A DNA stretch of 64,000 bases, taken from positions 576,001 through 640,000 of the forward strand of contig CAVVEU010000024.1 of assembly GCA_963747235.1 (NCBI GenBank). The letters are read 5' to 3'. A program made the position numbers and the translations under genes. Under the pieces are notes generated by a model. That model was not told the origin of the DNA. It ran no database searches and saw only the letters and a list, made by a program, of their open reading frames with translations. The DNA is from an uncultured Candidatus Rokubacteria bacterium. Its GTDB lineage: Bacteria; Methylomirabilota; Methylomirabilia; Rokubacteriales; CSP1-6. This document shows, piece after piece, positions 667-53,745 of this stretch. Each line of letters opens with the position of its first letter. Positions within the stretch are counted from its first letter, which is position 1.

Positions 667-2177
667 CCGCAATGGAGCTGGCGCTGGAGACCCGGAGCCC
701 ATCGGAAGCGCGCGCGGACGTGCTGGTGCTGGGGCAGTACGGCGACGGCGCGCGGCCCGCGCCCGAGATCGTCGCGCTGGACCGGGCGCTCGGCGGCCTG
801 CTCTCGCGCGTGCAGAAGAGCGAGAAGTTCGAGGGCAAGCCGGGGCAGATCTCCTACTTCCACACCGCGGGCGTGATCCCCGCCGAGCGGGTCCTCGTGG
901 TGGGGCTGGGCCCGGTCAAGCGGGGCGCGCGGGCGCGCGACGCCGAGCCCATCCGCCGCGCCACCGCCGCGGCGGTGCGGCGCGCGCGCGACCTGGGCGC
1001 CGCTTCGATCGCCGTGTTCATGCCCGCCGCCGCGCTGCCCGCGCGCGAGCGGGCGCAGGCGGTCGCGGAGGGCGCGCTGCTCGGCACCTATCGCTTCGAC
1101 AAGTACCTGAAGGAGAAGAACGGCAAGGTGGTCCGCGCGCTCACCGTGCTCGAGCCCGACCGGCGCAGCGCGGCCGCCGCGCGCGACGGGGTGCGCCTCG
1201 GCCGCATCGCGGCGGAGGCCACCTGCCTGGCGCGCGACCTGGTCAACGAGCCGGCCAACGTGGTGACGCCCACCTTCCTGGCGCGGCGCGCGGCCGAGAT
1301 CGCCGAGGAGGGCGGGCTCGCCCTGCGCGTCCTGGACCGGGCCGAGTGCGCCACGATGGGCATGGGCGCCTACGTGGGCGTGGCGCAGGGCAGCGAGGAG
1401 GCGCCCAAGTTCATCCACCTGACCTACACCCCGAAGGGCCGGGCGCGCCGCCGCGTGGTGGTGATCGGCAAGGGCATCACCTTCGACTCGGGCGGGCTCG
1501 ATCTCAAGACCGCCGACGGCATGCTGCGGATGAAGGACGACATGGCGGGCGCCGCGTCGGTGCTGGGCATCTTCCAGGCCCTGCCGCGGCTCAAGCCCCC
1601 GGTCGAGGTGCATGGGCTGATCGCGGCCACCGAGAACATGCCCTCCGGCACCGCGCAGCGCCCGGGCGACATCGTGCGGGCGATGAACGGGCTCACCATC
1701 GAGATCGGCAATACCGACGCGGAGGGCCGGCTCACCCTGGCCGACGCCCTCGCCTACGCGGTCGAGCACATCAAGCCGGACGAGATGATCGACATGGCGA
1801 CCTTGACCGGCGCGGTGGTCATCGCGCTGGGCCAGGGCGTGTCCGGGATGATGGCCAGCGACGACGGCCTCGCCTCGCGGGTCCTGGCCGCCGCCGACGG
1901 GGCGGGGGAGCGGATGTGGCGGCTGCCGCTCCACGACGAGTACAAGGACGGGCTCAAGAGCGACGTGGCCGACCTCAACAACATCTCGAGCCAGCGCGGA
2001 GCCGGGGCCATCGTGGCCGGCCTCTTCATGCGCGAGTTCACCGCGGGCGTGCCGTGGGCGCATCTCGACATCGCGGGCACCGCCTTCACCGAGCGGGAGC
2101 TGCCGCTCGGGCCCAAGGGCGCCACCGGCGTGGGCGTGCGGACGCTGCTCACCTATCTCGCGAACGGATCGCGCTAG
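663..2177 (+). CDS. pepA: Leucyl aminopeptidase (M17)
   Basis: GKGITFDSGG, MKDDMAG, NTDAEGRL and WAHLDIAG motifs. ATGA overlap with the NUDIX stop; alternative start at 672. Confidence 0.95.
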   Translation: MTAMELALETRSPSEARADVLVLGQYGDGARPAPEIVALDRALGGLLSRVQKSEKFEGKPGQISYFHTAGVIPAERVLVVGLGPVKRGARARDAEPIRRATAAAVRRARDLGAASIAVFMPAAALPARERAQAVAEGALLGTYRFDKYLKEKNGKVVRALTVLEPDRRSAAAARDGVRLGRIAAEATCLARDLVNEPANVVTPTFLARRAAEIAEEGGLALRVLDRAECATMGMGAYVGVAQGSEEAPKFIHLTYTPKGRARRRVVVIGKGITFDSGGLDLKTADGMLRMKDDMAGAASVLGIFQALPRLKPPVEVHGLIAATENMPSGTAQRPGDIVRAMNGLTIEIGNTDAEGRLTLADALAYAVEHIKPDEMIDMATLTGAVVIALGQGVSGMMASDDGLASRVLAAADGAGERMWRLPLHDEYKDGLKSDVADLNNISSQRGAGAIVAGLFMREFTAGVPWAHLDIAGTAFTERELPLGPKGATGVGVRTLLTYLANGSR

Positions 2178-2192
2178 GCGCCGCGGGACCCG

Positions 2193-3038
2193 ATGGCGGG
2201 CGGCGTCGACCTCCACACGCACACGATCGCCTCCGACGGCACGCTCCGGCCGCGCGAGCTGGTGGCCGAGGCGGCCCGGCGCGGGGTGCGCGTGCTCGCG
2301 ATCACCGATCACGACTCCACCGAGGGCCTCGCCGAGGCGATCGAGGAGGCGCGGCTCCACCCGCCGCTCGTCATCGTGCCCGGCATCGAGATCAACTGCG
2401 ACGTCGAGGGCGCCGAGATCCACATCCTGGGCTACTGCATGGACTACGAAGCGGCGTGGTTCCAGGACTTCTGCCGCGCCCAGCGCGAAGAGCGCCGGGC
2501 GCGCGTGCACCGGATGGCCGAGCGGCTCGCCGAGCTCGGCATGCCGATCGACCCCGAGCGCGTGTTCGCCCTGGTGCAGGAGGGCTCGGCGGGGCGCCCG
2601 CACGTGGCCCGCGTGATGGTCGAGCGCGGCTACGTCAAGACGGTGCGCGAGGCTTTCGACAAGTACCTGGCCGCGGGCAAGCCCGCGCACGTCCAGCGCA
2701 AGAAGCTCACGCCCGAGGACGCGGTGCGGCTGCTGCGCCGGGCCGGCGGCGTGCCCGTGTTCGCCCACCCGGGGTTGTCGGATCGGGACGCGTTGATCCC
2801 GTCCCTGGTCGCGGCCGGGCTCATGGGCATCGAGTGCTTCTACAGCGAGCACACCCCCGCCCAGCGCGGCAGCTATGTCGAGCTCTGCCGCCGGCACGGC
2901 CTGCTCGCGACCGGCGGCTCCGATTTCCACGGCCCGCCGGTGCGCGCCGCGGTCCTGGGCAACCCGACCGTGCCCCTGGCGGTCTGGGAGGCCCTGCAGG
3001 TGAAGGCGGCGGAGGCGCGGGCGAGCCGCCCCGCCTGA
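2193..3038 (+). CDS. PHP-domain phosphoesterase (TrpH/YciV-like)
   Basis: DLHTHT, ITDHD, FAHPG and TGGSDFHG motifs. Confidence 0.9.
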   Translation: MAGGVDLHTHTIASDGTLRPRELVAEAARRGVRVLAITDHDSTEGLAEAIEEARLHPPLVIVPGIEINCDVEGAEIHILGYCMDYEAAWFQDFCRAQREERRARVHRMAERLAELGMPIDPERVFALVQEGSAGRPHVARVMVERGYVKTVREAFDKYLAAGKPAHVQRKKLTPEDAVRLLRRAGGVPVFAHPGLSDRDALIPSLVAAGLMGIECFYSEHTPAQRGSYVELCRRHGLLATGGSDFHGPPVRAAVLGNPTVPLAVWEALQVKAAEARASRPA

Positions 3039-3045
3039 CCCCGGC

Positions 3046-3071
3046 TGTCGATTCCGGGGGTCGTCGGCGTC
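3046..3071 (+). promoter_or_regulatory. ECF42-type promoter (-35 TGTCGA, -10 CGTC)
   Basis: TGTCGA(3046-3051)-16 nt-CGTC(3068-3071) directly upstream of the DGPF gene, next to an ECF42-type sigma. Confidence 0.65.
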
Positions 3072-3135
3072 GTATAGATGAGGGCCGCTTCGACGGCCCG
3101 ACATCCACGATAGGGCACGAGAGGGAGGCATACCG

Positions 3136-3481
3136 ATGCGCTACCTGTTGCTCATCTGCTCCGACAAGAACCAGCCCGCTCCGTCCCCGGCCGAGATGGA
3201 CGCCATGGTGCAGGGACACGGCCGCTTCGCCCAGGAGCTGCACGCGGCCGGCAAGATGGTCCACGGCGAGCGCCTGCGCCCCGACACCGACGGCAGCCGC
3301 GTCCGCTTCAAGGCCGGGCAGCGCCAGATCATGGACGGGCCCTTCGCCGAGACGAAGGAGGCCCTGGGCGGCTTCTACCTGATCGAGTGCGACACGCAAG
3401 CAGGAAGCCCTGGAGTGGGCGAAGAAGGTCCCGCTCGGCGAGGGCGGCTTCATCGACGTGCGGCCGGTCTGGGCGATGTAA
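3136..3481 (+). CDS. YciI/DGPF family protein (frameshift near 3400)
   Basis: MRYLLLI...DGPFAETKEALGGFYLIEC, continuing in another frame as EALEWAKKVP...IDVRPVWAM*. GGAGG RBS. Confidence 0.85.
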
Positions 3482-3563
3482 GGGCGGGAGCCTCCGCCGC
3501 CGCGCCGCGGGCCCGGCGGTCGCGCCCCCAGCATGATCGCCGGATGGCGTACCATGCCAGGTC

Positions 3564-4850
3564 GTGGAGCCGTCGACGGACGAGAGCGTGCGCGCGCGCC
3601 TGGCCGAGGTGTTCCGGCTCGAGTACGCGCGGGTGGTCGCCTCGGTGCTGCGGATCGTGCGCGACATCGACGCGGCGCAGGAGGTGGTCCAGGAGGCCTT
3701 CGAGCAGGCGCTCGATCACTGGCCCGCGGACGGCATCCCGGATCGTCCGGGCGCGTGGCTGCTCACCACGGCGCGCCGCCGGGCGCTCGATCATCTGCGG
3801 CGCGTCCGCCGGGCCGGCGCGCGCGTGGACGCCCTCGCCCACGAGGCGCTCGGCGCGGCGCACCCGGCGCCTGACGTGCCCAGCTTCGAGACGCCCGACG
3901 AGATCCCCGACGATCGGCTCCGGCTGATCTTCACCTGCTGCCATCCCGCGCTCCCCGCCGACAGCCGCGTCGCGCTCACGCTGCGGCTGGTCGGCGGTCT
4001 CTCGACGACGGAGATCGCGCGCGCGTTCCTGGTGCCCGAGCCGACGATCGCCCAGCGCCTGGTGCGCGCGAAGCGGACGATCCGCGACGGCGGCTTCCCG
4101 TACGAGGTGCCGGAAGGGGTCGAGCTCGCGTCGCGGCTGTCGGCCGTGCTCGCGGTGCTGTACCTGATCTTCAACGAGGGCTACGCGGCCCATTCGGGCG
4201 ACGACCTCGTGCGGCACGATCTCTGCGAGGAGGCGATCCGTCTCGGCCGCGTGCTCGCCGAGCTGATGCCGCGCGAGCCCGAGGTGCTGGGCTTGCTGGC
4301 CCTGATGGAGCTCCAGACCTCCCGCGCGGCGGCGCGCACCGACGCCGACGGCAATCTGGTGCTGCTCGAGGATCAGGACCGGCTGCCGCTGGGACCGGGC
4401 GCCGGATCGCGCGGGGCCTCGCCTGTCTCGAGCGCGCCGGGCCGTCGGCGCGCGCGGGGGCCTATCAGCTCCAGGCCGCCATCGCCGCCTGTCACGCGCA
4501 GGCCGCCATCGTGGGAGGCGACGGACTGGCCGCGCATCGTGGGCCACTACCGGGCGCTCGCGGCGCTCGCCCCGTCGCCCGGTCGTCGACCTGAACCTGG
4601 CGGTGGCGATCGGTCTGGCCGACGGGCCCGCGGCGGGCCTGGCGGCGCTCGATCGGATCGACGACCTGGCGCTGCGCGCCTATCATCTGCTGCCCGCCGC
4701 GCGCGCCGAGTTCCTCCGCCGCCTCGGCCGCGCCCCGGAGGCCGCCGTCGAGTACCGGCGCGCGCTCCGCCTCGTGGACAACCCGCGCGAGCAGGTGTTC
4801 CTGGCGCGCGGCTGGCGGCCTGCGAGCCGGGGGGTGGCTCGGGCGCGTAG
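3564..4850 (+). CDS. ECF sigma factor with C-terminal TPR extension (ECF42-type); several frameshifts 4380-4810
   Basis: Region 2 (AQEVVQEAF, PGAWLLTTARRRALD), DDRLRLIFTCCHPAL, region 4 HTH and LYLIFNEGY. Confidence 0.85.
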   Translation: MEPSTDESVRARLAEVFRLEYARVVASVLRIVRDIDAAQEVVQEAFEQALDHWPADGIPDRPGAWLLTTARRRALDHLRRVRRAGARVDALAHEALGAAHPAPDVPSFETPDEIPDDRLRLIFTCCHPALPADSRVALTLRLVGGLSTTEIARAFLVPEPTIAQRLVRAKRTIRDGGFPYEVPEGVELASRLSAVLAVLYLIFNEGYAAHSGDDLVRHDLCEEAIRLGRVLAELMPREPEVLGLLALMELQTSRAAARTDADGNLVLLEDQDRLPLGPGAGSRGASPVSSAPGRRRARGPISSRPPSPPVTRRPPSWEATDWPRIVGHYRALAALAPSPGRRPEPGGGDRSGRRARGGPGGARSDRRPGAARLSSAARRARRVPPPPRPRPGGRRRVPARAPPRGQPARAGVPGARLAACEPGGGSGA

Positions 4851-5693
4851 CTACCGCGCGTGGTTCGGGAACATCCGCTCGAAGATCTCGGGATCGGTGC
4901 GCGAGCGGAAGAAGGCCAGCTGGCGCTCGGAGTAGTCGGCGCCCGACCGGAACACGATGGCGGCGGTGGCCAGCAGGGTGCCGTCGGCCGCGAGCAGGGC
5001 CGAGCGGGTGCGCCAGAACGTGCGCCGCCGGTCCACCGGCGTCACGTCGGCGAAGCGGCCCACCGCGGTGACCGGGCCCGGCGCGATCGCCTCGGGGCGC
5101 AGCAGGGTCAGGGCGATGCGATTGGTGAGGCCGCCTTCCTTCGTGACCAGGGCGCCGAGCCACCACGCGATCTCGTCGAGCACTACCGCGGCCAGCGCGG
5201 GCGCGAGGCGATCGCCGGGCCGCCGCCAGGGCTCGCGGGGCAGGAAGCGGGCCCAGACGCCGTCGGCGTCGAAGCGCAGGCCGAGCTGCAGCCCGAGCGG
5301 GTTGTGCGCGCCGCAGGCCAGGCACTGATCGGACAGCGGCATCGGCCAGCCCTCGCGCCCGCTCGCCCGCCAGCCGGGATCGGGCGCGGGGTCCTCGATG
5401 TCGCCATGACCGATCGTGGCCGACGTGAGCGGCTGCGTCCCGTCGAGAATGGTGACGGTGGCGACGCCGCCGTCGACGTGGCCTTCGAGCGCGAGCGGCG
5501 TGTCGAGCGGCACCGACGAGGTGAGGCGGCCTTCGACGAGGCGCGGCCGGCCGTCCGGCCCCAGCGCGGCGGACGCCCCATCCAGCAGCGCGACCAGCCC
5601 GCCGCCGTGCACGATCCCGGGCCAGCTCTGCAGCACGGGCGGCGCGAGGAAGCGCCCGCGGCCGTCGGCCTCGAGCGTCGCGGCGGCGGCCAT
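4851..5693 (-). CDS. Double hot-dog fold thioesterase-like protein (PaaI-like)
   Basis: SWPGIVHGGGLVALLD in the first domain; CLACGAHNPLGL...LDE in the second. Confidence 0.7.
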   Translation of the reverse strand: MAAAATLEADGRGRFLAPPVLQSWPGIVHGGGLVALLDGASAALGPDGRPRLVEGRLTSSVPLDTPLALEGHVDGGVATVTILDGTQPLTSATIGHGDIEDPAPDPGWRASGREGWPMPLSDQCLACGAHNPLGLQLGLRFDADGVWARFLPREPWRRPGDRLAPALAAVVLDEIAWWLGALVTKEGGLTNRIALTLLRPEAIAPGPVTAVGRFADVTPVDRRRTFWRTRSALLAADGTLLATAAIVFRSGADYSERQLAFFRSRTDPEIFERMFPNHAR

Positions 5694-5795
5694 GACGTCG
5701 CCGACCGCCGGGCCCGCCGGACGCCGCGTGCTATACTCGCGAGGATTCATGCCGCCGGCCATTCTACTGTCGCCGTCGCTCCCGCCGCAACGCGT

Positions 5796-7013
5796 GTGAC
5801 CAGCTCGACCCTCGAGCTCCTGAGCCATGGCCCGTTCGCGCGGATCATGCTCACGAACTTCTTCTTCTTCGGGGCGCTGAACACCTTCCTGCTCCTGCCG
5901 CTGTATATCCAGAGGCTGGGCGGCGACGAGGCGGATATCGGGCTCGTGCAGGGCCTCTACAGCGCGGCCGGCATCGTCTGCCAGCCGGTGGTGGGCGCCC
6001 TCATCGACTACCTGGGCCGCCGCTTCTTCATGCGGCTCGGCGCCGTGCTGCTCGTGGTGTCCTGCGCGCTCTTCGTGGTGGCGAGCCCGCTGCCCCTGCT
6101 CGGCGTGCTGCGCATCCTGCAGGGCGTGGCCTTCTCCGCCTTCTTCGTCGCCAACTACATCCACGTGGTGGAGATGGTGCCCGCGGAGCGGCGCGGGTGG
6201 GCGCTCGGCATCTTCGGCCTCTCGGGCCTCGTCTCCACCTCGCTGGCCCCGCTCTTCGGCGAGTTCATGATCCGCCGCTTCGGCTTTCCCACGTTCTTCA
6301 TGGCCTCCACCGTGATCGCGGCGGTGGCCACCGCGATGTGCTGGCGGGTGCGGGACGTGCGGCCGGCCGCGCTGGGCGCCCGCCCGGGCCTGCACGTCAT
6401 CCGGGAAGGGCTGCTCGAGCTGCGGCACATGCACATGGCGATCGGGCTGTTCTTCGGGCTCGGCACCGGGACCATCTTCACGTTCCTGCCGACCTTCGGC
6501 GAGGACCTGGGCATCACGAGCGTCGGCCTCTTCTACACCGCGTACGCGGCGGCGGCGATGCTGGTGCGGGTGGTGGGCGGCAACCTGATCGACGTGCGCG
6601 GCCGGCGCGCGGTGATCATCCCGTGCATGTTCGTGCAGTCCGCCGCGACCTGCATCATCGCGCTGGTCGCGATCCTGTTCGCGCCCGCGCTCCGGCTGCC
6701 GGTGCTGCCGTTCATCTTCCTGGCCGGCTTCCTGGCTGGCGCGGCCCACGGCTTCCTCTACCCGGCCATGTCGGCCCTGCTGATGGACGTGACGCCCGAG
6801 CGTCGCCGCGGCAGCGCGGTGGGCATCTTCAGCTCGGTGATCCTCGTCGGGAACTCGTTCGGGGCGATCGCCTTCGGCTACGTCGCGCACGGGCTCGGGT
6901 ACGCGGTGATGTGGAGCGCGCTCACCGTGCTGCTGATCGTCGGCTCGTTCCTGAGCGTCCGGCTGCGCGTGGGCTACGCGAGGCCGGTGACGGCGCCCGC
7001 GCCCGCGTCCTGA
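5796..7013 (+). CDS. MFS transporter
   Basis: About 12 hydrophobic segments; motif A-like GALIDYLGRR and GNLIDVRGRR. Alternative start at 5847. Confidence 0.9.
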   Translation: MTSSTLELLSHGPFARIMLTNFFFFGALNTFLLLPLYIQRLGGDEADIGLVQGLYSAAGIVCQPVVGALIDYLGRRFFMRLGAVLLVVSCALFVVASPLPLLGVLRILQGVAFSAFFVANYIHVVEMVPAERRGWALGIFGLSGLVSTSLAPLFGEFMIRRFGFPTFFMASTVIAAVATAMCWRVRDVRPAALGARPGLHVIREGLLELRHMHMAIGLFFGLGTGTIFTFLPTFGEDLGITSVGLFYTAYAAAAMLVRVVGGNLIDVRGRRAVIIPCMFVQSAATCIIALVAILFAPALRLPVLPFIFLAGFLAGAAHGFLYPAMSALLMDVTPERRRGSAVGIFSSVILVGNSFGAIAFGYVAHGLGYAVMWSALTVLLIVGSFLSVRLRVGYARPVTAPAPAS

Positions 7014-9853: not shown

Positions 9854-11496
9854 CCGGCAGCCCCGGCCGATCGCCGAGATCGCGCGCGAGCTCGGCCTCG
9901 GCCCGGAGGAGTGGATCCCCTACGGCCACGACAAGGCCAAGGTGCGCGTCGGCGCGCTGGCCGCCCGCCGCGATCGGCCCGACGGCAAGCTCGTGGTGGT
10001 GTCGTCCATCACCCCGACCCCGGCCGGCGACGGCAAGACCACCATGACCATCGGCATCGGGCAGGCGCTGTCGCGCGTCGGCGCCCGGCCGGTGATCGCG
10101 CTGCGCGAGCCGTCCATCGGGCCGACGCTCGGCATGAAGGGCGGCGGCACCGGGGGCGGCAAGGCGCAGGTGGTGCCGATGGAGGAGATCAACCTCCACT
10201 TCACCGGCGACTTCCACGCGATCACCTCGGCGCACAACCTGCTCGCCGCCGCCATCGACAACCACCTCCACCACGGCAACCCGCTCGGCATCGACGTCCG
10301 CCAGGTGGCGTGGAAGCGCGTCCTCGACGTCAACGACCGCGCCCTGCGCAGCGTGGTGGTCGGGCTCGGCGGGCGCCTCGACGGCGTGCCGCGCGAGGCG
10401 GGCTTCCTCATCACCTCGGCCTCCGAGATCATGGCCGCGCTCTGCCTGGCCGAGGACCTGATGGATCTCAAGCAGCGGCTCGGCCGGATGCTGGTCGCGC
10501 TGACCGCCGACGGCAAGCCGGTGACCGCCGACGCGCTCGGGGTGACCGGCGCGATGATCGCGCTGCTGCGCGACGCCATCCACCCGAACCTGGTGCAGAC
10601 GATGGAGGGCACGCCCGCGCTGGTGCACGGGGGGCCGTTCGCCAACATCGCCCACGGCTGCAACTCGGTGCTGGCCACCCGGCTCGCGCTCAAGCTCGGC
10701 GACATCTGCCTCACCGAGGCGGGCTTCGCCACCGACCTGGGCGCCGAGAAGTTCTTCGACATCAAGTGCCGGCTCGCGGGGCTCACGGCCCGACGCGGCC
10801 ATGATCGTGGCCACCGCGCGGGCGCTCAAGTACCACGGCGGGGTGCCGGTGCCGGAGCTGGACCGGGAGAACGTGGCCGCGCTCACCCTCGGACTCGACA
10901 ACCTGGAGGCGCACGTGGACGCGGTGCGCCAGTTCAAGGTGCCGGTCCTCATCGGGATGAATCGCTACCCGTCGGACACCGAGGCGGAATACGCGGCGGT
11001 GCGGGAGCGCTGCGCGCGGCTCGGGGTGGCGGTGCACGTGGCCGACGTGTTCGGGCGCGGGGGCGCGGGCGGCGAGGAGCTGGCCCGGGGCCTGCTCGCC
11101 CTCCTGGCCCGGGAGCGCTCGGCCTTCGCGCCGCTCTACGCGCTCGACGACCCCATCACGGTGAAGCTCGACACCATCGCGCGGCGGATCTACGGCGCCG
11201 ACGGCGTCGAATATCCCAAGCGGGTCGAGCGTCAGATCGCGCAGGCCGAATCCCTCGGCTACGGGAGGCTACCGATCTGCGTCGCGAAGACCCAGCGCTC
11301 GCTGTCCGACGATCCGGCCCTGCTGAATCGCCCCCGCGGGTTCAAGATCACCGTCAACGAGATCCGCATCTCGGCGGGCGCCGGCTTCCTGGTGGCCATC
11401 ACCGGTGACATCACCACCATGCCCGGGCTGCCGCGCCGTCCCAACGCCGAGAAGGTGGACGTCACGCCGGACGGCGTCATCACGGGGCTCTTCTAG
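9819..11496 (+). CDS. fhs: Formate--tetrahydrofolate ligase (frameshift near 10790)
   Basis: [62 protein letters not shown]...ITGLF. Confidence 0.95.
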
Positions 11497-44897: not shown

Positions 44898-46025
44898 TCA
44901 GGTCAGACCGTGGCGAAACTGCCGCGCGTGGGCGATCCGGCGCGCGATCGCGGGGTGGGAATAGAGGAAGAACTCCTCGAGGCGATGGGGGTCGCGCTCG
45001 GCCAGATTGAGTGTGGCCAGCCGCTCCATGGACCCGATGAAGGCGCGCGGATCGGGAATGGTCTCGAGCGCGAAGCGGTCGGCCTGCCATTCGACGCGGC
45101 GCGACCAGCCGTTGGCGACCGGCAACGCGGCGAGGCTCACGAGGACCAGGATCAGGCCGAAGAGCGGCAGCCCCGCGATATCCGCGGGCCCGGCGAGGCC
45201 GAGCCACCCTGCACTCCACCGCAACGCGAGATCGGCGATCCAGAAGGTGACGAGGGTGAGCGCGCCCTGGACCAGGAGCCCCCGGCGGATGTCGCCGTGG
45301 AGCTGATGCGCCAGCTCGTGCGCGAGCACCGCTTCGATCTCTTCCGCGGTGAACTGATCGAGCAGGGTGTCGAAGAGCAGGATCCGCCGGGTGCGGCCGA
45401 GCCCGGTCACCGCCGCGTTCGCGGTGCGGCTCTTGCGCGACTGGTCCACCACGAACACGCCGGTCACCGGCACGCCGACCCGGCCGGCGAGCGCGAGCAG
45501 CCGCGCGAGCAGGTCCCCGTCGGGGAGCGGGGTCAGGCGATAGAAGAGCGGCACGAGCCAGATCGGCGCGACCAGGGCGAGCAGCGTGTAGCCCGCGAGG
45601 AAGACGGCGGCGCCCCAGAGCCACCACCACGGCGTCACGCGCAGCAGCCCGTAGATGGTCAGCACGGCGAGCAGGCCGAGGCCGGCGCCGATCAGCGCCG
45701 CCTTCCCCGCGTCCCACAGCCAGCGCCGGAAGGGCTGGTGCAGCAGCCCGAAGCGACGCGGCAGCCAGTACCCGCCGAGCCAGTGAAGCGGCAGGGTGAG
45801 GAGGCGATACGCGCCGGCCAGGACGAGCACGACGATGCCGAGCTCGAGCCACCAGATGCTGGTCCAACGCGCCACGTGGTCGGTGAGATGCGCCGCCGCC
45901 CGCGTCGCGATGAGGACGAGCAGGTAGGCGACGGAGAGGGCCAGCCCGAGCAGGGAGAGGGCGAGCTGGCGACGGTGGTAGACGCGCGCGCGGGCGCCCT
46001 CCTCGGGCACCGGGGTCGGGGCCAT
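44898..46025 (-). CDS. M48 family (Ste24-like) membrane zinc protease
   Basis: ANAAVTGLG, LFDTLL, AHELAH, EWQADRFA, YSHP. Confidence 0.92.
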   Translation of the reverse strand: MAPTPVPEEGARARVYHRRQLALSLLGLALSVAYLLVLIATRAAAHLTDHVARWTSIWWLELGIVVLVLAGAYRLLTLPLHWLGGYWLPRRFGLLHQPFRRWLWDAGKAALIGAGLGLLAVLTIYGLLRVTPWWWLWGAAVFLAGYTLLALVAPIWLVPLFYRLTPLPDGDLLARLLALAGRVGVPVTGVFVVDQSRKSRTANAAVTGLGRTRRILLFDTLLDQFTAEEIEAVLAHELAHQLHGDIRRGLLVQGALTLVTFWIADLALRWSAGWLGLAGPADIAGLPLFGLILVLVSLAALPVANGWSRRVEWQADRFALETIPDPRAFIGSMERLATLNLAERDPHRLEEFFLYSHPAIARRIAHARQFRHGLT

Positions 46026-46113
46026 GCCCCGAGTGTCCCACCGTCGGGCCGGCCCGCCAACCGCCGCGGCCGTTGTGCTACACTGGCCGCCAATTCTCAC
46101 TCAGGGAGCCGCC

Positions 46114-47028
46114 ATGTTTCAGTCCGTCGAGGACGTCCAGCAGCAGTTCAAGAACGCCCGCTACATCGCCAACCGCCGCATCTCCACCGTGGTCTTCCTC
46201 GCCGCGCGCATGGGCCGTCCCGTGCTCATCGAGGGGCCGGCCGGCGTGGGCAAGACGGAGCTGGCCAAGACGCTGGCCGAGGTGACCGGGCGGCATCTCA
46301 TCCGCCTGCAGTGCTACGAGGGGCTGGACGAGGGCAAGGCGCTCTACGAGTGGAAGTACGCCAAGCAGCTCCTCTACACCCAGCTCCTCAAGGAGCGCAT
46401 CGGCGAGCTGATCGCGGACGCGCCGTCGCTGCCCGACGCGGTCGCCCGCATCTCGGGCCAGGACGACGCCTTCTTCTCCCACCGCTTCCTGGCCCCGCGC
46501 CCGCTGCTGCAGGCGATCGAGTCCGTCGATCCGGTGGTGCTGCTGGTGGACGAGATCGACAAGGCGGAGCCGGAGTTCGAGGCGTTTCTTCTGGAAGTCC
46601 TGTCCGACTTCCAGGTCTCGGTGCCCGAGCTCGGCACGATCCGGGCCACCCAGATCCCGCTGGTCGTCCTCACCTCGAACAACGCGCGCGAGCTGTCCGA
46701 CGGCCTCAAGCGGCGGTGCCTGCACCTCTTCATCGACTTCCCGCCCGCCGACGAGGAGCTCGCGATCATTCGCCTGAAGGTCCCGGAGGTCTCCGAGCGC
46801 CTGGCCCAGACCGTGGTCACCGCGGTGCAGCGCATCCGCGGGCTCGAGCTGCGCAAGGCCCCGTCGATCTCGGAGAGCCTCGACTGGGCGCGCTCGCTCG
46901 TCATCCTCAACGCGGAGACGCTCGACCGCGACCTGGTGGAATCCACGCTCACCTTGCTGGTCAAGCACGAGAAGGACCTGGAGCGGGTCAAGGGCGCCCT
47001 CGACAAGGTGCTGGCCGACCTGGGCTAG
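46114..47028 (+). CDS. MoxR family AAA+ ATPase (CoxD-like)
   Basis: EGPAGVGKT, RLQCYEGLD, LLVDEIDK, LTSN, LKRRC. Confidence 0.92.
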   Translation: MFQSVEDVQQQFKNARYIANRRISTVVFLAARMGRPVLIEGPAGVGKTELAKTLAEVTGRHLIRLQCYEGLDEGKALYEWKYAKQLLYTQLLKERIGELIADAPSLPDAVARISGQDDAFFSHRFLAPRPLLQAIESVDPVVLLVDEIDKAEPEFEAFLLEVLSDFQVSVPELGTIRATQIPLVVLTSNNARELSDGLKRRCLHLFIDFPPADEELAIIRLKVPEVSERLAQTVVTAVQRIRGLELRKAPSISESLDWARSLVILNAETLDRDLVESTLTLLVKHEKDLERVKGALDKVLADLG

Positions 47029-47034
47029 TCGCCC

Positions 47035-47596
47035 ATGAGCGGGAGCCCGTCCGGCCTCACCGAGTTTCGCGAGCTCTGGTTCCCGAGCCCGCGCATCCGG
47101 CTGTCGGAGCTGGGCCCGTCCGGTCCCGTGTTCATCGAAGGGGGCCGCTGCATCTCGCGCGCGCTCGGCGAGTACACCAAGCTCTGGATCTCCGCGGCGG
47201 GGCGCTGGCACTTCTACTACGTGCACCCGTCGCCCCGCGATTTCTTCCTCGCCACGATGCCGGAGGCGGTGCCCCATCTCCTGCACCCCGGGGAGATGAC
47301 GGTGGAGACCTTCCGCCAGGGGCTCGCCTACAAGGTGGTGCTCGGCCTGCGGTGCGCCGAGGGCCCGGTGCGGGTGCTCCATCTGGTCGGCGACGTGACC
47401 GACGTGGCGCGCGCGGTGGAGCGCGACGAGGACGCGCCGGCCGGGCCGCTCGGGTGGAAGCTCAAGATGACGCACCTGATCTGCCCAGGGCTCGTTCCAC
47501 GGCCTGATCCGCCTCGAGGACGGGCGCCTGCACCCCATCAGCCGGGACGGCGGCGAGGACGTCTTCAAGTCCTCCTGGGTCCACTTCACCCGATGA
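47035..47596 (+). CDS. Hypothetical protein (frameshift near 47485)
   Basis: GC3-biased ORF between the coxD- and coxE-like genes; the alternate frame gives GSFHGLIRLEDG...WVHFTR*. Confidence 0.6.
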
Positions 47597-47607
47597 GCGC
47601 GAGTTAA

Positions 47608-49018
47608 ATGGACCAGCGGATACTGGAGTTCATCGGCGACCTGCGGCGGGCCGAGATGCGCATCTCGCCGAGCGAGGCGCTCGACGCGCTCACCGCCTCC
47701 ACCGAGATCGGCCTGGAAGATCGCGACACGTTCAAGAGCGCGCTCGCGGCCACGCTGGTCAAGGAGTCGCGCGACCTCGTCACCTTCGACCGCATCTTCG
47801 ACCTCTACTTCCTCGACCTGCAGGCGCTCGGAGAAGGGCTCAAGAAGGCGATGGGCCCGGCGGATCCGAAGATCCAGGAGATGCTCGACCGCCTGGTCGC
47901 CGAGGAGGGCATGGAGCTGGACGAGCTCACCGAGCTGCTGCTGCAGGGCGAGGGCAGCGACATGGAGATGGCCATCCGCCAGGAAGGCCAGGGCACCGGC
48001 CTCGAGCGGCTGATGTACTTCCTCCAGGTCGGCTACTTCTCGCGCCGCATCTACGACAAGTTCGACTGGGAGGCGATCGAGCGCGACCTGAGCCGGATCA
48101 TGCAGCTCCTGGAGGCCAAGGGGCTCGACCCGGGCATGCTCGCGCGCATCCGGAACTATCTCGACCTGCGGCTCGAGGCCTTCCGCCGCATGATCCGCCA
48201 GCACGTGGAGCGCGAGCTCGAGCGCCGGGCCTTCCGCCAGGGCGAGAAGCTGACCCGCGAGGTGCTGACCGACAAGCCGCTCTTCGCGCTGTCCGCCGAC
48301 GAGGTCGCGCAGATGAAGGCGGTGGTGGCCCGCCTGGCCCGCAAGATCAAGGACGCCCTCGCGATGCGCCAGCGGCAGGAGGAGAAGGGGCGGCTCGACA
48401 CGCGGCGGACCATCCGGCAGAGCCTGCAGTACGGCGGGATCCCGATGGAGGTGCGGTTCCGGCGGCGGCACCGGGAGAAGCCCAAGCTGATCACGCTCTG
48501 CGACGTGTCGGACTCGGTGCGGAACGCCTCCCGCTTCATGCTCCAGCTCGTGTGGAGCCTGCAGGACTGCTTCTCCCGCGTGCGCTCCTACGTCTTCGTG
48601 TCCGAGATCGCGGAGGTCACCCAGGCCTTCGCCACCTACCCGGTGGACACCGCGATCGACTGGGCGCTCAAGTCCTCCTCGGTGGACTATCACTGCCGCT
48701 CGGACTTCGGCTACGCGTTCAGCCGCTTCGTGAAGACCGAGCTCGAGACCGCTCGACCGCAAGACCACCGTGCTGATCCTGGGCGACGCGCGCAACAACT
48801 ACAACGACCCGCAGGCCTGGGCCATCCGGCAGATCCGGGAGCGGGTGAAGGGCGTCATCTGGCTGAATCCGGAGGGGCAGTGGGGCTGGGGGATCGGGGA
48901 CAGCGTGATGCCGCTCTACTCGCCGGCCTGCGACATCGTCAAGGAGTGCCGCACGGTGGGGCAGCTCGTCCAGGTCGTCGATCATCTGGTTCACTCCTGG
49001 TGGCGTCGCGGGCGCTGA
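47608..49018 (+). CDS. VWA-domain CoxE-like protein (frameshift near 48750)
   Basis: GRLDTRRTIRQS, MIDAS CDVSDS, ILGDARNN, WLNPE. Confidence 0.88.
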
Positions 49019-49664
49019 TCGGGCTCCTGTTCCTGGCCTCCTCGCTCGGCGCCGGCCCGGGCGCCGCGCTCGCCGCGGAGTGTGTCGCGCTGGACGATTT
49101 CTCCCAGGGCCGGCTCGGCGAGTTTCCCCTCGAATGGAAGCCGCGCAAGGAGTCGGGCCGGCCGGTGTACTCCATCCGGGAGGAAGGCGGGCGGCGGTTC
49201 CTCCGCGCCATCGCCCGCCGCATCGGCATCCAGGCCGGCCGCGAGGTGGCCTGGAACCTCGAGGCCTATCCCATCCTGGCCTGGTCGTGGCGGCCCATCG
49301 AGTTCCCGACGAGCTCCGACGAGCGGAAATCGGGCACCAACGACAGCGCGGTGTCGGTGTACGCGGTCTTTCCGAGCTCGGCGATCTCGGTGAAGAGCGT
49401 CAAGTACGTCTGGAGCCGCGGTGGTGCCGGCGGGCACCCATCTCACGTCGAGCGCGGGGAACACCCAGGTGCGCGTCTTGCGATCGAGCCCCCAGGTGGG
49501 CAAGTGGGCCGACGAGCAGGTGAACGTCCGCGAGGACTACCAGAAGTACTTCGGGGGGAGCGAGGTCCCCAAGGCCGGGCGGGATCGCGGTGCTCACCGA
49601 CTCCGACGACACCAAGAGCAGCGCGCAGGGCGACTACGCCAACTTCCGCGTCTGCAAGCCGTGA
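49000..49664 (+). CDS. DUF3047 domain secreted protein (frameshifts near 49420 and 49578)
   Basis: Signal peptide; YPILAWSW, KYVWS, NVREDYQKYFG, AVLTDSDDT. Confidence 0.8.
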
Positions 49665-49676
49665 GGCGCCCGGCCG

Positions 49677-50729
49677 GTGGCTGACGCGGGCGATCCGTTC
49701 GAGACCCTCTACGCTCGCGGGGTGACCGACGGGCTGCCGGTCATTCCTCCCACCCGCGAGCGCGTGACGGCCGCGGTGGCCGCGACCGGCCGCGAGGGGA
49801 GCGAGCTGATCGCCCTGGTGCCGCCCAACTTCGGGCGCGCCACCGTGGAGAAGATCGCGGTCAACGCGGTGATGGCGGGCTGCCGGCCCGAGTACCTGCC
49901 GGTGGTGATCGCGGGCGTGGACGCGATGTGCGACGAGGGCTTCGACCTGCACGGCGTCTCGGCCACCACCAACTTCCCGTCGCCGCTCTTCATCGTCAAC
50001 GGGCCCGCGCGCGCGCGCCTCGACATCAACTGCGGCGCCGGCCTCTTCGGGCCGGGCTGGCGCGCCAACGCCACCATCGGGCGGGCCCTGCGGCTGATCG
50101 CGGTCAACCTGGGCGGAGCGATTCCCGGCGTGGTCAGCATGTCCACCATGGCCCACCCGGGGCGCTACACCTACTGCATCGGCGAGGCCGAGGAGGAGAG
50201 CCCCTGGGACTCGCTCGCGGTCGAGCACGGCTTCGCCCCCGGCGACAGCGTGATCGCCGCCTTCGCGGGGGAAGCGCCCCACGGCGTCTACGATCACATG
50301 AGCCGCACCGCGAAGGACCTGCTGATCACGATCGGCCGGTCGCTCGAGGTCATCTCGCACCACAAGTCCACGCATCACGGCGACACGCTCGTGGTGCTCT
50401 CGCCCGAGCACGCGCGCACCATCGCGGACTCCGGCTGGGGCAAGGCCGAGATGCGCGAGTTCCTGTGGACGCGCCTGCGCAAGCCGGTCCGCGAGCTGAT
50501 CCCCGGGGTGGACGGCGGCGAGGGGCTGCCGGCGCACGTGCTCGCGAAGTTCCCGCATCCGGAGACCGACGGCACCCTGATCGCCAAGTTCCGCGAGCCG
50601 GGCAACCTCAAGTTCGTGGTGGCGGGCGGCACCGCGGGACGCTTCTCGGCGGTGATTCCGGGCTGGACCTTTCCCAAGAGCTCGCGCATGATCTGGAGGA
50701 AGATCCAGATGCCCGAGGAGGCCGCATGA
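49677..50729 (+). CDS. Conserved hypothetical protein, partner of the UGSC-type (seleno)protein
   Basis: TDGLPVIPPTRERV, TVEKIAVNAVMAGCRPEYLPV, RANATIGRA; ATGA-coupled to the next gene. Confidence 0.8.
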   Translation: MADAGDPFETLYARGVTDGLPVIPPTRERVTAAVAATGREGSELIALVPPNFGRATVEKIAVNAVMAGCRPEYLPVVIAGVDAMCDEGFDLHGVSATTNFPSPLFIVNGPARARLDINCGAGLFGPGWRANATIGRALRLIAVNLGGAIPGVVSMSTMAHPGRYTYCIGEAEEESPWDSLAVEHGFAPGDSVIAAFAGEAPHGVYDHMSRTAKDLLITIGRSLEVISHHKSTHHGDTLVVLSPEHARTIADSGWGKAEMREFLWTRLRKPVRELIPGVDGGEGLPAHVLAKFPHPETDGTLIAKFREPGNLKFVVAGGTAGRFSAVIPGWTFPKSSRMIWRKIQMPEEAA

Positions 50730-51253
50730 GCGACGAAGAGTTCCTGGACCCGACCGATTCGGTGGCGGTCCCGCGCAAGGTCGCGCGCCGCCTCGAGAGC
50801 CTCGACGGCAAGACCATCACCCTGCTGGACATCTCGAAGGCCAAGGGCAATCACCTGCTCGACCGCCTGGAGGAGCTGCTGCGCGAGCGCGCCCACCCGC
50901 GCGAGATCATCCGGAAGAAGAAGCCGACGTTCGCGCGGCCCGCCCCGGAGGACCTGCGCCAGGAGATCGCCAAGCACAGCGACGCGGTCATCGAGGCCCT
51001 CGCCGACTGAGGGTCCTGCACCACGTGCAGTGTGCACGACAGCGTGTTCTTCGAGGACCAGGGGATTCCCACCGCGACGATCATCTCGACCGAGTTCAAG
51101 CGGGCGGCGCGCGCGCAGGCCGACGCGCTCGGGGCGAGCGCGTTTCAGACCATCATGGTCGCCCACCCGATCCAGCCGCTCACCCGGGACGAGGTGCGCG
51201 CGCTGGCCGACGGGGCCTTCGACGAGATCGTGGCGCGCCTGACGCGCGCCTGA
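50726..51253 (+). CDS. UGSC-family selenoprotein, 175 aa, Sec (TGA) at codon 95
   Basis: Two in-frame ORFs joined by TGA 51008-51010: EALAD-U-GSCTTCSVHD...GIPTATI; hairpin immediately 3' of the TGA. Confidence 0.88.
51011..51059 (+). promoter_or_regulatory. Candidate bacterial SECIS element
   Basis: Lower stem GGTCCT(51012-17)/AGGACC(51054-59); upper stem CGTGCA(51024-29)/TGCACG(51033-38); GTG apical loop about 20 nt after the UGA. Confidence 0.7.
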
Positions 51254-51260
51254 CGATCAG

Positions 51261-52070
51261 GTGACGCTCCTCCTCAAGCTGGTCCTGGTGCCGGGGCTCA
51301 TCGCCCTGGTCACCCTGGCCGGCCGCCGCTTCGGCCCGCGGATCGGCGGCTGGCTCAATGCCCTGCCGCTGGTGGCGGGGCCGGTGCTCTTCTTCCTCGC
51401 GCTCGAGCAGGGCGACGCGTTCGTGGCGCGGGCCGCGGAGGCGACGCTGGCCGGGCTCGCCGCGGTCGCCGCCTTCTCGGTGATCTACGCGTGGACCGCG
51501 GTGGCGCGCCCGTGGTGGGTCTGCGTGCTGGTGGGCTGGACCGCCTTCGCGCTCCTGACCGTCGCGCTCCAGGCGGTGACCTGGACGGCGGCCTCGGGGC
51601 TCGCGCTCGCGCTGGCCGCGTTCGCCATCGCGCCGTTCACGCTCCCCCCATTGCCCGACGCGCCGATCCCGCCGCCCGCGCCCGCCTGGGACCTGCCCCT
51701 GCGCATGGGCGCGTCGGTCGTGCTCGTGCTCGCGGTGACCGGCCTGGCCACCTGGCTCGGCCCGCGGCTCTCCGGCGCGATCACCCCGTTCCCGATCGCC
51801 ACCACGATCCTGCTCGCGTTCACCCACGCGCAGCAGGGCGCGCCCGCCGCGGTCGGCTTCCTGCGCGCGTTCCTGCCCGCGATGTGGAGTTTCGGGTTCT
51901 TCTGCTTCGTGCTGGCGGTGGGCGTGGTGCCGCTCGGGCGCGACGTCGCGTTCCTGCTGGCGCTCGCCGTGCACCTCCTGGTGCAGGGCGCGGTGTGGCT
52001 CGGCCTCGAAGCGCTGGCTAGCCGGGGAAGCGCCAGACGCGGCCCTCGGGCGGCTCGTCGGTCAGCGTGA
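51261..52070 (+). CDS. Hypothetical polytopic membrane protein (two internal halves)
   Basis: About 8-9 TMs; repeated FGPRIGG..LP / LGPRLSG..FP motif. Confidence 0.75.
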   Translation: MTLLLKLVLVPGLIALVTLAGRRFGPRIGGWLNALPLVAGPVLFFLALEQGDAFVARAAEATLAGLAAVAAFSVIYAWTAVARPWWVCVLVGWTAFALLTVALQAVTWTAASGLALALAAFAIAPFTLPPLPDAPIPPPAPAWDLPLRMGASVVLVLAVTGLATWLGPRLSGAITPFPIATTILLAFTHAQQGAPAAVGFLRAFLPAMWSFGFFCFVLAVGVVPLGRDVAFLLALAVHLLVQGAVWLGLEALASRGSARRGPRAARRSA

Positions 52071-52526
52071 ACTGCGGCAGCGCGAAGTCCGGCGGCGAGG
52101 TCCTGGAAGACCACGCGGACCCGCTTGCCGATGGCCACGTTCGTCTCCGGCTCCGGGCGGAACTCGGGCGTCACCAGGTTGGCGATGACGCGCAGGGCCT
52201 CGTCCGGGGTGGGCGCGCCGCGCTGCTCGTCGAGCTCCACCAGCACCACCGCGTAGGGCGTCCACTCCTTGAAGCCGGGCTGGATCGCGTGGTGCACGAC
52301 CTCGTAGGAGTAGATGTGCCCACGCGCCGCTCACCGGCTTCCACTCCCACTCGAGCGACATGCACCACGGGCAGCCGTGGCTCGGCGGGTAGCGCATGAG
52401 CCCGCACGCCTTGCAGGCGCGGAGCATCAGGCGGTGGTTCGTGCGCGCGAGCTTGAAGTGCTCGCGCCACTCGGAGTCGTTCTCCGGGATCACCAGGTTC
52501 ATGCCGCGGTACTCGACGGAGGCCAT
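52018..52526 (-). CDS. Zn-ribbon/OB-fold protein (DUF35 family; frameshifts near 52325 and 52090)
   Basis: CKACG..YPP..GCPWC, IYSYEVVHH, PYAVVLVELDE, IGKRVRVVF. Confidence 0.85.
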
Positions 52527-52528
52527 CG

Positions 52529-53745
52529 CTAGTTCCTCATGATGAGGGCGGAGCCGGTCGGCGGCATCGCCCAGCCGAGGTTCATGGTGATGCGCGCGTC
52601 CTCGCACCTGGCGGCACTTGCCGGGCGAGTAGTCGTAGCTGTGCTTGCCGTCCTCCCAGCCCGGGCAGTAGTCGTCCACCTGGCCGCGGAGCTGGCGCAC
52701 GTTCTCGATCACCATCGAGATGCCGTGGGTGTAGCCCTCGCAGAGGTGGCTGCCCGAGGTGTTGTTGGGCCGCTTGCCCCCGAGCTCGATGATGCCGCTC
52801 GAGACGTACTGGCCGCCTTCGCCCTTCTTGCAGAAGCCGTATTCCTCGAGCTGGAGCATGGTGGTGAACGTGAAGGCGTCGTAGGAGCCGGTGACGTTGA
52901 CGTCGTCCGGCTTGATGCCGGCCTGGCCGAACACGATGTCCTTGGCGTGGTAGCCCGCCACCCGGGTGATCGGCCCGTGGGCCCAGTGGAAGTCGGTGCG
53001 CGGCTTGTTGACCCGGCCCGCGACGCCCATGATGTAGACCGGCTTGCGGCGCAGGTCGCGCGCGCGCTCCGCGCTCGTGACGATCAGCGCGGTGGCGTTG
53101 TCGGTCTCCAGGCAGCAGTCCAGCAGGTGGAGCGGCTTGCAGATCCACCGGGAGCCGACCACGTCCGCCACCGTGACGCGCTCCTTGAGGAAGGCCTTCG
53201 GGTTCTGCGAGGCGTGCTTGCTGTGGGCCACCCGCACGTGGGCCACCTGCTCCGACGTGGTCCCGTACTCGTACATGTGGCGCATGAAGGTCGGCGCGAA
53301 GTTCTGGCCGGCGCTGCGCATGCCGAAGGGCACCTGGGCCAGGTCGAGGCCCGCGCACCGGCTGGGCCGCGCGGGCGCCGGTGCCGCCGATGCGGAAGTC
53401 GGAGTAGCCGTTCATCGAGCGGAAGATCGCCACCGTGTGGCACATGCCGGCCTCGATGGCGCCCATCGCGAGGCCGACGAGGGCCTCGGTGGAGGAGCCG
53501 CCGCCGAAGACGTCCATGTAGAAGTTGAGCCGGATGCCGAGGTCCGGCGCCACGCAGTTGGCGAAGACGGAGTCGCCGCTCTGGTAGGACATCATGCCGT
53601 CCACGCCGTCCTTGCCGAGGCCGGCGTCGCGCATGGCGTTGCGCACCGCCTCGACCGCCATCGCGCGCGTGCTGCGGGCGGACTGCCGGCTGTACTCGGT
53701 CTCTCCGACGCCGACGATGCAGTACTTGTCCTTGAGTGAGGCCAT
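52529..53745 (-). CDS. Thiolase-superfamily protein (SCP-x/Ltp2-like; frameshifts near 53350 and 52600)
   Basis: IVGVGET, HASQNPKA, PLHLLDCC, YDAFT, NTSGSHLCEGY. Confidence 0.85.

Follow-up and report, generated by a model that had tools for sequence, protein, structure and literature searches.

Introduction

The UGSC family has been described as a 'selenoprotein of unknown function' (PMC1976440, 2007; also PMC13188914) and as a major family of the Global Ocean Sampling (GOS) data, with 255 selenocysteine (Sec) forms versus 21 Cys forms (PMC2398784, 2008); here and below, these papers are cited from excerpts of their text. UGSC was also placed among the most abundant selenoprotein families of aquatic metagenomes; it was credited with a 'likely Trx-like fold', and its fusion to a domain named Unknown_1 was noted (PMC2398784). 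The family is named in reviews (PMC9312934, PMC13188914), and 'UGSC-containing protein' is the name used in the GOS and Olavius selenoproteome papers. Here we describe a UGSC gene, and the adjoining gene of a 350-residue protein that we call UP350, in a stretch of 64,000 nucleotides (hereafter the window) from an uncultured Candidatus Rokubacteria bacterium (GenBank assembly GCA_963747235.1, contig CAVVEU010000024.1, positions 576,001 to 640,000 of the forward strand). The gene is broken by an in-frame TGA codon that is followed by a hairpin resembling a selenocysteine insertion sequence (SECIS). Since UGSC has been in print since 2007-2008, the gene adds a member to a catalogued family. The excerpts of the literature naming UGSC contained no treatment of its function, and in them we found no mention of a frozen hairpin, of UP350 as a near-universal partner, of fusions to thioredoxin reductase (TrxR) and AhpC-like domains or of a joint loss of cysteines, all of which are set out below; a literature search on Rokubacteria and selenocysteine yielded nothing apparently relevant.

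In the SECIS of Escherichia coli fdhF, the upper stem-loop comprises 17 nt (nucleotides 15-31) with G23 and U24 as loop nucleotides, and G23, together with the bulged U17, is given as a SelB binding site (PMC8659212). With respect to function, the system of comparison is thioredoxin-fed glycine reductase, with GrdA (a CxxU carrier) and GrdB (UxxCxxC), where a small Sec/Cys redox protein works with a larger, substrate-specific partner, an arrangement like that proposed here for UGSC and UP350. AhpC/AhpF and NTRC-type systems, which link a TrxR-like flavoprotein to its thiol acceptor by fusion or coupling, are a further parallel.

A single UGSC gene interrupted by one TGA codon

The locus comprises a single gene of the UGSC family, whose internal TGA is followed, at the spacing seen in E. 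coli, by a conserved SECIS-like hairpin. The open reading frame (ORF) track divides the gene in two, and the original prediction held that both halves share one frame parted by the TGA alone. Direct reading confirmed this: the frame runs from the ATG at 50726 to the TGA at 51251-51253 with TGA 51008-51010 as its sole interruption, and the read-through product across that codon is ...DAVIEALAD-U-GSCTTCSVHDSVFFED...

50726..51253, + strand: UGSC-family selenoprotein gene (putative), 175 codons including Sec95, from ATG 50726 to the final TGA
51008..51010, + strand: in-frame UGA, probably read as selenocysteine (U95)

With C in place of U, the protein scored 171.8 bits against Pfam PF24696 (UGSC family; cut-off 25) and 166 bits against the equivalog NCBIfam NF041046, 'UGSC family (seleno)protein' (cut-off 125), which places it in the family to which it had been provisionally assigned. 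The Pfam and NCBIfam profiles cover residues 6-173 and 27-173, respectively. In each case a single colinear match spans the TGA and, as had also been proposed, the break is therefore no indel. The nearest relatives are found in metagenome-assembled genomes (MAGs) of Methylomirabilota/Rokubacteria, and the protein is 57-86% identical to its best public relatives.

An exhaustive HMMER search returned 1167 relatives at E<=0.001. We aligned the window protein and P0007 with those 93 of 136 newly listed proteins that are 155-235 aa long, to give 95 rows. In the 94 full-length homologues the Sec column holds Cys in 89, Ser in three, Gly in one and His in one, so that Cys aligns with the TGA codon as expected of a selenoprotein. 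Gly96 is present in 92/95 rows, Ser97 in 73/95 and Cys98 in 90/95; Asp94, Asp105 and Glu110 are near-invariant. The original prediction had proposed a UxxCxxC centre. Its U/C-x-x-C part is kept, but the third cysteine, Cys101, is found in 28/95 rows only, versus Trp in 33/95, and because of this the family motif reads, on the alignment, as D-[U/C]-G-S-C rather than UxxCxxC. The codon of this third cysteine sits within the frozen RNA stem of the Sec forms (see below). The window protein shares the full-length profile match and the D-U-G-S-C motif with the family, and we saw no essential difference from it.

In two proteins, P0002 and P0240, the Sec/Cys residue is replaced by Arg (D-R-G-S-C). 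The codon CGA differs from TGA by a single base, and the Arg could be a real substitution, a sign of a pseudogene or a sequence error. Some Cys-form proteins of ~271-275 aa carry a C-terminal extension (P0250, and a 271-aa protein at 4989-5804 of the Arthrobacter plasmid locus L082); that of P0250 is NifU-like, at 26.5 bits just below the cut-off of 27.

Searches beyond the family were negative. Sequence and profile searches of the PDB with UGSC and UP350 gave no supported relative of solved structure, and a sequence match to 2m7b (E=0.02) was rejected as the profile search gave no support. ESM Atlas searches with the stored homologues P0127 and P0232 found nothing beyond their own family, relaxed Pfam scans of all members of the UGSC and UP350 families found no second family, and hhalign found no relation between UGSC and UP350.

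The TGA codon in relatives

A genome scan matched 599 stretches, 485 of which encode relatives, and the best 80 were kept. These loci come from Gammaproteobacteria (25), Methylomirabilota (13), Chloroflexota (12), Myxococcota/delta (8), Actinomycetota (7), Binatia (6), Acidobacteriota (6) and Poribacteria (3), eight phylum-level groups in all. TGA stands at the Sec codon in 80/80 of them, and in 81/81 with the window, which is not an unbiased rate, because the scan used a peptide pattern typical of Sec forms (D[AV]V[IV]EALAD) and ranked its matches by likeness to the window. A tblastn search of plasmids gave eight matches, and the seven loci examined comprise one Sec form (L081) and six Cys forms. 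The Sec form, from a plasmid of Acidovorax sp. T1, belongs to another part of the family and reads GSGD-TGA-GSCTSWSVHD. Cultured bacteria that carry a UGSC gene include Pseudonocardia bannensis DSM 45300 (locus L067) and Hyphomonas neptunium, the latter named in PMC1976440.

In a FastTree phylogeny of 156 rows there were three changes of Sec/Cys label, and the Acidovorax Sec form paired with a Cys form. We also ran a quick IQ-TREE analysis of 24 Sec and 36 Cys rows; the Cys rows were the first 36 that remained once 17, flagged in the FastTree analysis for their long branches or unusual composition, had been removed. It gave four Sec/Cys changes, and the approximately unbiased (AU) test rejected a single Sec clade (p=5.6e-5). 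The SECIS element has therefore been kept in separate Sec lineages.

A frozen hairpin 3' of the UGA

Two pairs of complementary arms follow the UGA in the window, as the original prediction had noted in describing a two-part stem-loop:

51024..51038, + strand: apical hairpin of the putative SECIS, CGUGCA-GUG-UGCACG, with G23 and U24 (counted from the U of UGA) in the loop
51012..51059, + strand: lower stem, GGTCCT (51012-51017) with AGGACC (51054-51059), present in the window and unconserved

Both pairs exist in the window, but it is the apical hairpin alone that is conserved. Across the 81 sequences (the 80 genome loci and the window), RNAalifold kept the 6-bp apical hairpin as the only helix. 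The lower stem was paired in 58% of cells, no better than in shuffles; we rejected it as a conserved helix, and it is clade-specific at best. The apical arms (CGTGCA, 51024-51029; TGCACG, 51033-51038) form a hairpin of 15 nt, 13 nt beyond the UGA, which occupies nucleotides 17-31. Its loop is GUG, with the G lying 22 nt after the U of UGA.

With the T of TGA taken as 0, positions +16 to +23 (CGTGCAGT) and +25 to +28 (TGCA) are identical in 81/81 sequences. The loop is G23 U24 N25 throughout (81/81), with all four bases seen at +24 (nucleotide 25), and the single variable stem position is G-C in 56 sequences versus G-U in 25. Codons +5 to +8 (ACG/TCG, TGC, the otherwise rare AGT, and NTG) show zero synonymous variation in 81/81, whereas all other degenerate codons between -30 and +40 vary, by 0.24-2.07 bits; the Cys codon three places before the frozen TGC codon, for example, is TGC in 43 and TGT in 38. 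The exact hairpin pattern occurs once per locus in 80/80 genome loci, in 0/8 others, and once in the 64 kb window. A covariance model built on the 80 loci, with the window left out, matched the window at 51020-51042 with 39.8 bits (E=1.4e-10).

The same model (R1) matched the Acidovorax plasmid locus with 25 bits (E=1.7e-5). The hairpin there is in register and has a GUG loop, and the pair C20:G26 is replaced by G20:C26, a change that makes Cys101 a Trp. A G-U loop is present in 82/82 Sec forms versus 0/6 Cys forms, and the Ser codon is AGT in 0/6 Cys forms. The frozen codons, the compensatory pair of the Acidovorax locus and the Sec-only G-U loop indicate selection on the RNA beyond the needs of the protein. 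Because a SECIS freezes codons, the residues after Sec look highly conserved in Sec forms.

The fdhF sequence was taken from the K-12 record and numbered from the U of UGA as 1. It has stem UGCA at 18-21, loop GGUC at 22-25 and stem UGCA at 26-29, versus stem CGUGCA at 17-22, loop GUG at 23-25 and stem UGCACG at 26-31 in the window gene. In both elements the hairpin lies within the coding sequence directly 3' of the UGA, G23 and U24 stand at the same distance, and the four loop-proximal pairs are UGCA/UGCA. The proposed fit to the bacterial SECIS model is upheld, in that a 6-bp hairpin at an E. coli-like distance presents G23 and U24 in its loop. The elements differ in loop size (3 nt, GUN, in UGSC versus 4 nt, GGUC, in fdhF), in the lower helix, which is not conserved in the UGSC element, and at position 17, discussed below.

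Proposed decoding of the UGA

We propose that the ribosome would read UGA 51008-51010 as Sec within a 19-kDa UGSC protein of 175 residues. The hairpin offers loop G23/U24 at the spacing found in the SelB-bound fdhF SECIS of E. coli, and SelB with Sec-tRNA(Sec) would bind it and deliver Sec. The features described above support the view of the original prediction that this is a hidden selenoprotein, and we hold with high confidence that SelB, bound to the hairpin, brings about the reading of the UGA as Sec.

A general reassignment of TGA is excluded, because TGA is the commonest ordinary stop in the window (26/41 Pfam-supported frames); it ends UP350 and UGSC too. Sec machinery was seen beside one relative, an Actinomycetota MAG (L074) in which selD (on the minus strand), selA, selB and tRNA-SeC, followed by the UP350-UGSC operon, occupy 339-6516. 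This arrangement is like a small Sec island, and the Sec machinery there may serve UGSC above all. The flanks of the other loci contained no sel genes. No other gene in the 64 kb window was a plausible candidate for an in-frame TGA.

Two readings would dispense with Sec. In the first, the UGA is a true stop, giving a 94-aa N-terminal protein and a separate 73-aa C-terminal protein that starts at GTG 51032. Public gene calls divide the family in just this way: ...ALAD is the end of many proteins that are 94-100 aa long (20/20 truncated proteins that were picked end exactly there), residue 103 is where others, 56-78 aa long, begin, and termination at UGA is the expected default without selenium. 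Against this, the Cys forms and the fusion proteins are single chains over this point, and a stop would sever the catalytic motif between Asp94 and Gly96. In addition, neither a Shine-Dalgarno sequence nor a start is conserved for the second gene, because GTG 51032 is the variable NTG codon, and the frozen hairpin would be left without explanation. We regard this reading as highly improbable.

In the second, the TGA stands in place of a Cys codon, through a recent nonsense mutation or a mistake in sequencing or assembly, and the gene is an ordinary Cys-form gene or a pseudogene. A single base change turns TGC or TGT into TGA, and the window contains many frameshifted genes, among them those for VWA_CoxE, a thiolase-like protein and half of formate-tetrahydrofolate ligase (FTHFS). 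Yet TGA is present in all 80 genome relatives, the window shows the G-U loop peculiar to Sec forms together with the frozen codons AGT, TGC and ACG, and it is matched by a covariance model built without it. An error or a fresh mutation is, in our view, barely credible.

Several observations weigh against decoding by way of the hairpin. The window has no selA, selB, selD or tRNA-Sec, genes that the original prediction expected the host to encode, and no tRNA genes of any kind within its 64 kb. Its broken genes fit an error-prone assembly. The hairpin is not unusually stable: the 23-nt hairpin of the window folds at -7.4 kcal/mol (z=-0.84), 37/200 shuffles fold as well, and a 66-nt region gives z=-0.25, so that we rejected thermodynamic stability as evidence for a SECIS. 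The stem is invariant within the 81 sequences, which hence hold no covariation, and the sole compensatory case is that of the Acidovorax plasmid. Compared with fdhF, position 17 of the UGSC element is a C paired with G31, with a bulged U17 in 0/81, and the UGSC covariance model did not match fdhF at E<=10. Rfam contained no relevant family, either at the gathering cut-off or at E<=10. Finally, the six Cys forms hold 3 to 6 of six in-register pairs, and the Cys forms of three haloarchaeal plasmids (L084, L086 and L087; ~5283-5314), whose hosts would not be expected to employ a SECIS of this kind, fold a hairpin at this place with z=-2.3, -3.1 and -2.8, respectively.

Because three of the six Cys forms also fold a hairpin here, the demands of the protein sequence account for some of the pairing. 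The features that set the Sec forms apart are the G-U-N triloop and the frozen codons. From the haloarchaeal Cys forms, it may be that the coding sequence is a pre-adapted site for the origin of a SECIS.

The partner protein UP350

The gene directly upstream of UGSC encodes UP350, and its TGA stop overlaps the UGSC start as ATGA:

49677-50729, + strand: UP350, 350 aa, a protein without Pfam or NCBIfam family
50715..50721, + strand: Shine-Dalgarno-like sequence GAGGAGG, assigned from the sequence, ending 4 nt ahead of ATG 50726

Against Pfam and NCBIfam, UP350 found no family even at E<=1 to 10. It is nevertheless common: 7972 of 8000 scored candidates were homologues, falling into at least 7972 clusters at 90% identity. 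UP350 lies directly upstream of UGSC on the same strand in 69/80 genome loci, with a 4-nt overlap in 23/69 and a spacing of -4 to +3 nt in 38/69 (on a heuristic choice of starts). By profile, it adjoins UGSC in 76/87 loci, including 7/7 plasmid loci. Adjacency is complete in Gammaproteobacteria (25/25), Binatia (6/6), Actinomycetota (7/7) and Myxococcota (8/8), and amounts to 12/13 in Methylomirabilota, 8/12 in Chloroflexota, 3/6 in Acidobacteriota (one being a contig-edge locus) and 0/3 in Poribacteria. Two of the haloarchaeal loci (L086 and L087) have UP350 paralogues on both sides of UGSC.

The two proteins also occur as fusions. Long UGSC proteins of ~560 aa are UGSC-UP350 fusions, and 22 of 49 long UP350 proteins carry PF24696. 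We infer that Unknown_1 of PMC2398784 is UP350. In 13 of the 49, UP350 is fused to a domain of the low-Mr TrxR type, with CxxC in 13/13; residues 358-659 of one of them, P0381, match solved TrxRs (E=5e-43). Two carry AhpC-TSA/Redoxin domains, and ten of the 49 are tandem UP350-UP350 proteins (nine without a Pfam family, and P0368, counted under UGSC). The rest are P0380, whose N-terminus is unknown, and single fusions to a pyridoxal phosphate (PLP) enzyme and an AMP-binding domain.

The Acidovorax Sec form is itself such a fusion. On plasmid p2-T1 (4965-7460 of L081), UGSC is fused in frame to UP350 and followed by a Y2/IS91-type transposase; the fusion gene is apparently truncated by insertion, and its annotation covers the first 96 codons, as a hypothetical protein.

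Across 109 UP350 domains, G68, G109, R136 and E170 are invariant, Cys69 is present in 97, Cys167 in 80 and Cys85 in 56; the protein also has a conserved TDGLPVVPPT box, and Cys69 is held in an AGC motif. Beside a redox-competent UGSC, UP350 retains Cys69 in 74/75 cases and Cys167 in 76/78. Among the fusion proteins, 15 have both the UGSC cysteine and Cys69. In 11 others, which fall into two related clades, Cys69 and Cys167 are missing along with the UGSC cysteines. This joint loss of cysteines is suggestive of a link between UGSC and UP350, and is not proof because the independent events are few. The N-terminus is Tat-signal-like (twin-arginine translocation; R-R-x-F) in P0401-P0408, P0403, P0397 and P0399, UGSC-UP350 fusions in which the cysteines are jointly lost, and these may be a non-redox, possibly exported offshoot.

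Proposed function

The fusions of UP350 to TrxR, UGSC and AhpC-like domains suggest a TrxR-fed selenol/thiol relay. We propose that Sec95 and Cys98, at what appears from the sequence pattern to be a strand-to-helix turn, would form a selenol/thiol redox pair that cycles with a selenylsulfide. UGSC would serve UP350, to which it is translationally coupled, as a dedicated carrier of reducing equivalents or as a subunit, and UP350, with its conserved Cys69 and Cys167, would be the substrate-handling partner. Electrons would pass from NAD(P)H through a thioredoxin-reductase-type flavoprotein, with or without thioredoxin, to Sec95/Cys98 of UGSC, and onward through Cys69/Cys167 of UP350 to the substrate. 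We consider this relay moderately likely. In keeping with it, two of the plasmid gene orders are trxB-trxA-UP350-UGSC (Arthrobacter, L082) and UP350-UGSC-trxB (Roseovarius).

The relay is not uniformly favoured by the data. UP350 is missing within 6 kb of UGSC in 10/79 informative loci, including 3/3 from Poribacteria and one Methylomirabilota locus (L001), where DUF3047 stands immediately before UGSC. Neighbouring trxB/trxA genes were found in 2/7 plasmid loci only, and not among the 40 commonest neighbour clusters (33 of them Pfam-named) of the 80 genome loci. Three fusion proteins have the UGSC cysteines only and three have Cys69 only. Many of the fusion proteins are, moreover, single metagenomic gene calls that could be artefacts.

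The parallel with glycine reductase raises another possibility, namely an enzyme resembling glycine or proline reductase, in which UGSC would be the catalytic selenoprotein (GrdB/PrdB-like) and its Sec would attack a substrate bound to UP350. The motif UxxCxxC is present in GrdB/F/H, according to the excerpts of PMC6778437 and PMC13188914. The window protein, with U-G-S-C-T-T-C, has it too, and the gene order trxB-trxA-UP350-UGSC of the Arthrobacter plasmid is a second point of likeness. This trxB/trxA linkage is shared with grd operons, which also contain both genes. However, the third Cys is no family feature, we recognised no pyruvoyl-type partner, and UGSC has no detected sequence similarity to the Grd proteins: at E<=10, the GRDB family (PF07355) was neither one of the four families listed with the window protein nor one of the 25 that were most widely shared, out of 39 matched by 75 members. 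UP350 is unrelated to any Pfam family, those of Grd included, and its direct fusions to TrxR and AhpC-like domains better fit UGSC as an exchangeable redox donor. We therefore regard a GrdB/PrdB-like role as unlikely.

The original prediction had alternatively raised a metal-binding centre. On such a reading, the U/C-x-x-C(-x-x-C) site would bind a metal or an Fe-S cluster, as in a chaperone or sensor, with no redox cycling. The NifU-like C-terminal domain of P0250 and the 271-aa form of the Arthrobacter plasmid would suit such a site. Its third cysteine is not conserved, though, the TrxR, thioredoxin and AhpC-like links point to dithiol exchange, and a Sec within this type of UxxC motif typically marks a thiol oxidoreductase (PMC2398784, in excerpt). 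We judge metal binding to be distinctly unlikely, and retain the relay from a TrxR-type system to UP350.

With AhpC/AhpF and NTRC-type systems, the relay would share the coupling of a TrxR-like flavoprotein to a thiol acceptor, as seen in the fusions of UP350 to TrxR with CxxC and to AhpC-TSA/Redoxin domains. It would differ from them in that the acceptor, UP350, has no known family, and in that the intermediate is, for most genomes, a UGSC protein encoded separately, often with Sec.

Wider gene neighbourhood

We rejected the idea of a third conserved operon gene, as the commonest further neighbour, a short-chain dehydrogenase/reductase (SDR), is present in 16 loci only. It is followed by CoA-transferase III (11 loci) and acyl-CoA dehydrogenase (7), often on the opposite strand; other recurring, non-universal neighbours are a thiolase-like protein with DUF35, amidohydrolases, tripartite ATP-independent periplasmic (TRAP) or tripartite tricarboxylate (TTT) transporters and a coenzyme A (CoA)-ester lyase. 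These neighbours hint that the substrate may be one of the small organic acids or CoA esters, and at a role in the catabolism of small organic acids.

In the window (G+C content, 71.5%), an AAA ATPase (MadB-like, below cut-off), VWA_CoxE and DUF3047 lie upstream of UP350-UGSC (45982-49725), and VWA_CoxE or DUF3047 is found upstream again in several Methylomirabilota loci (L001, L004, L007, L009-L011). VWA_CoxE is split over two frames (47608-49725). Two other genes are broken by frameshifts: that of a thiolase-like lipid-transfer protein, on the minus strand, is split in two (52062-53745), and the C-terminal half alone of FTHFS is in frame (10558-11493). Downstream, beginning 7 nt past the UGSC stop, an ORF on the plus strand (51261-52070) encodes an apparently hydrophobic protein of 269 aa; it has no family, and tblastn found no relative of it in any of the 80 genome loci.

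Significance

Taken together, the best explanation of the locus, which we hold with good confidence, is that it encodes a 175-residue, SECIS-decoded UGSC selenoprotein; that this acts as a redox carrier or subunit for UP350 is moderately likely. For the gene alone this is a matter of annotation, in that gene callers split it into two ORFs, and an NCBI model to mend the split exists. The hairpin is of wider interest as a clean natural example of a SECIS freezing four codons over eight phylum-level groups. As to function, the hypothesis is now concrete: it names UP350 as an obligatory partner, an electron source of the TrxR type, and four candidate redox residues in Sec95, Cys98, Cys69 and Cys167. 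Tentatively, and with slightly more doubt than confidence, we suggest that UGSC and UP350 may constitute a widespread, undescribed TrxR-fed reductase, in which UGSC would reduce the Cys69/Cys167 pair of UP350, UP350 would act on a small substrate, and the SECIS would have arisen repeatedly from a hairpin imposed by the protein sequence.

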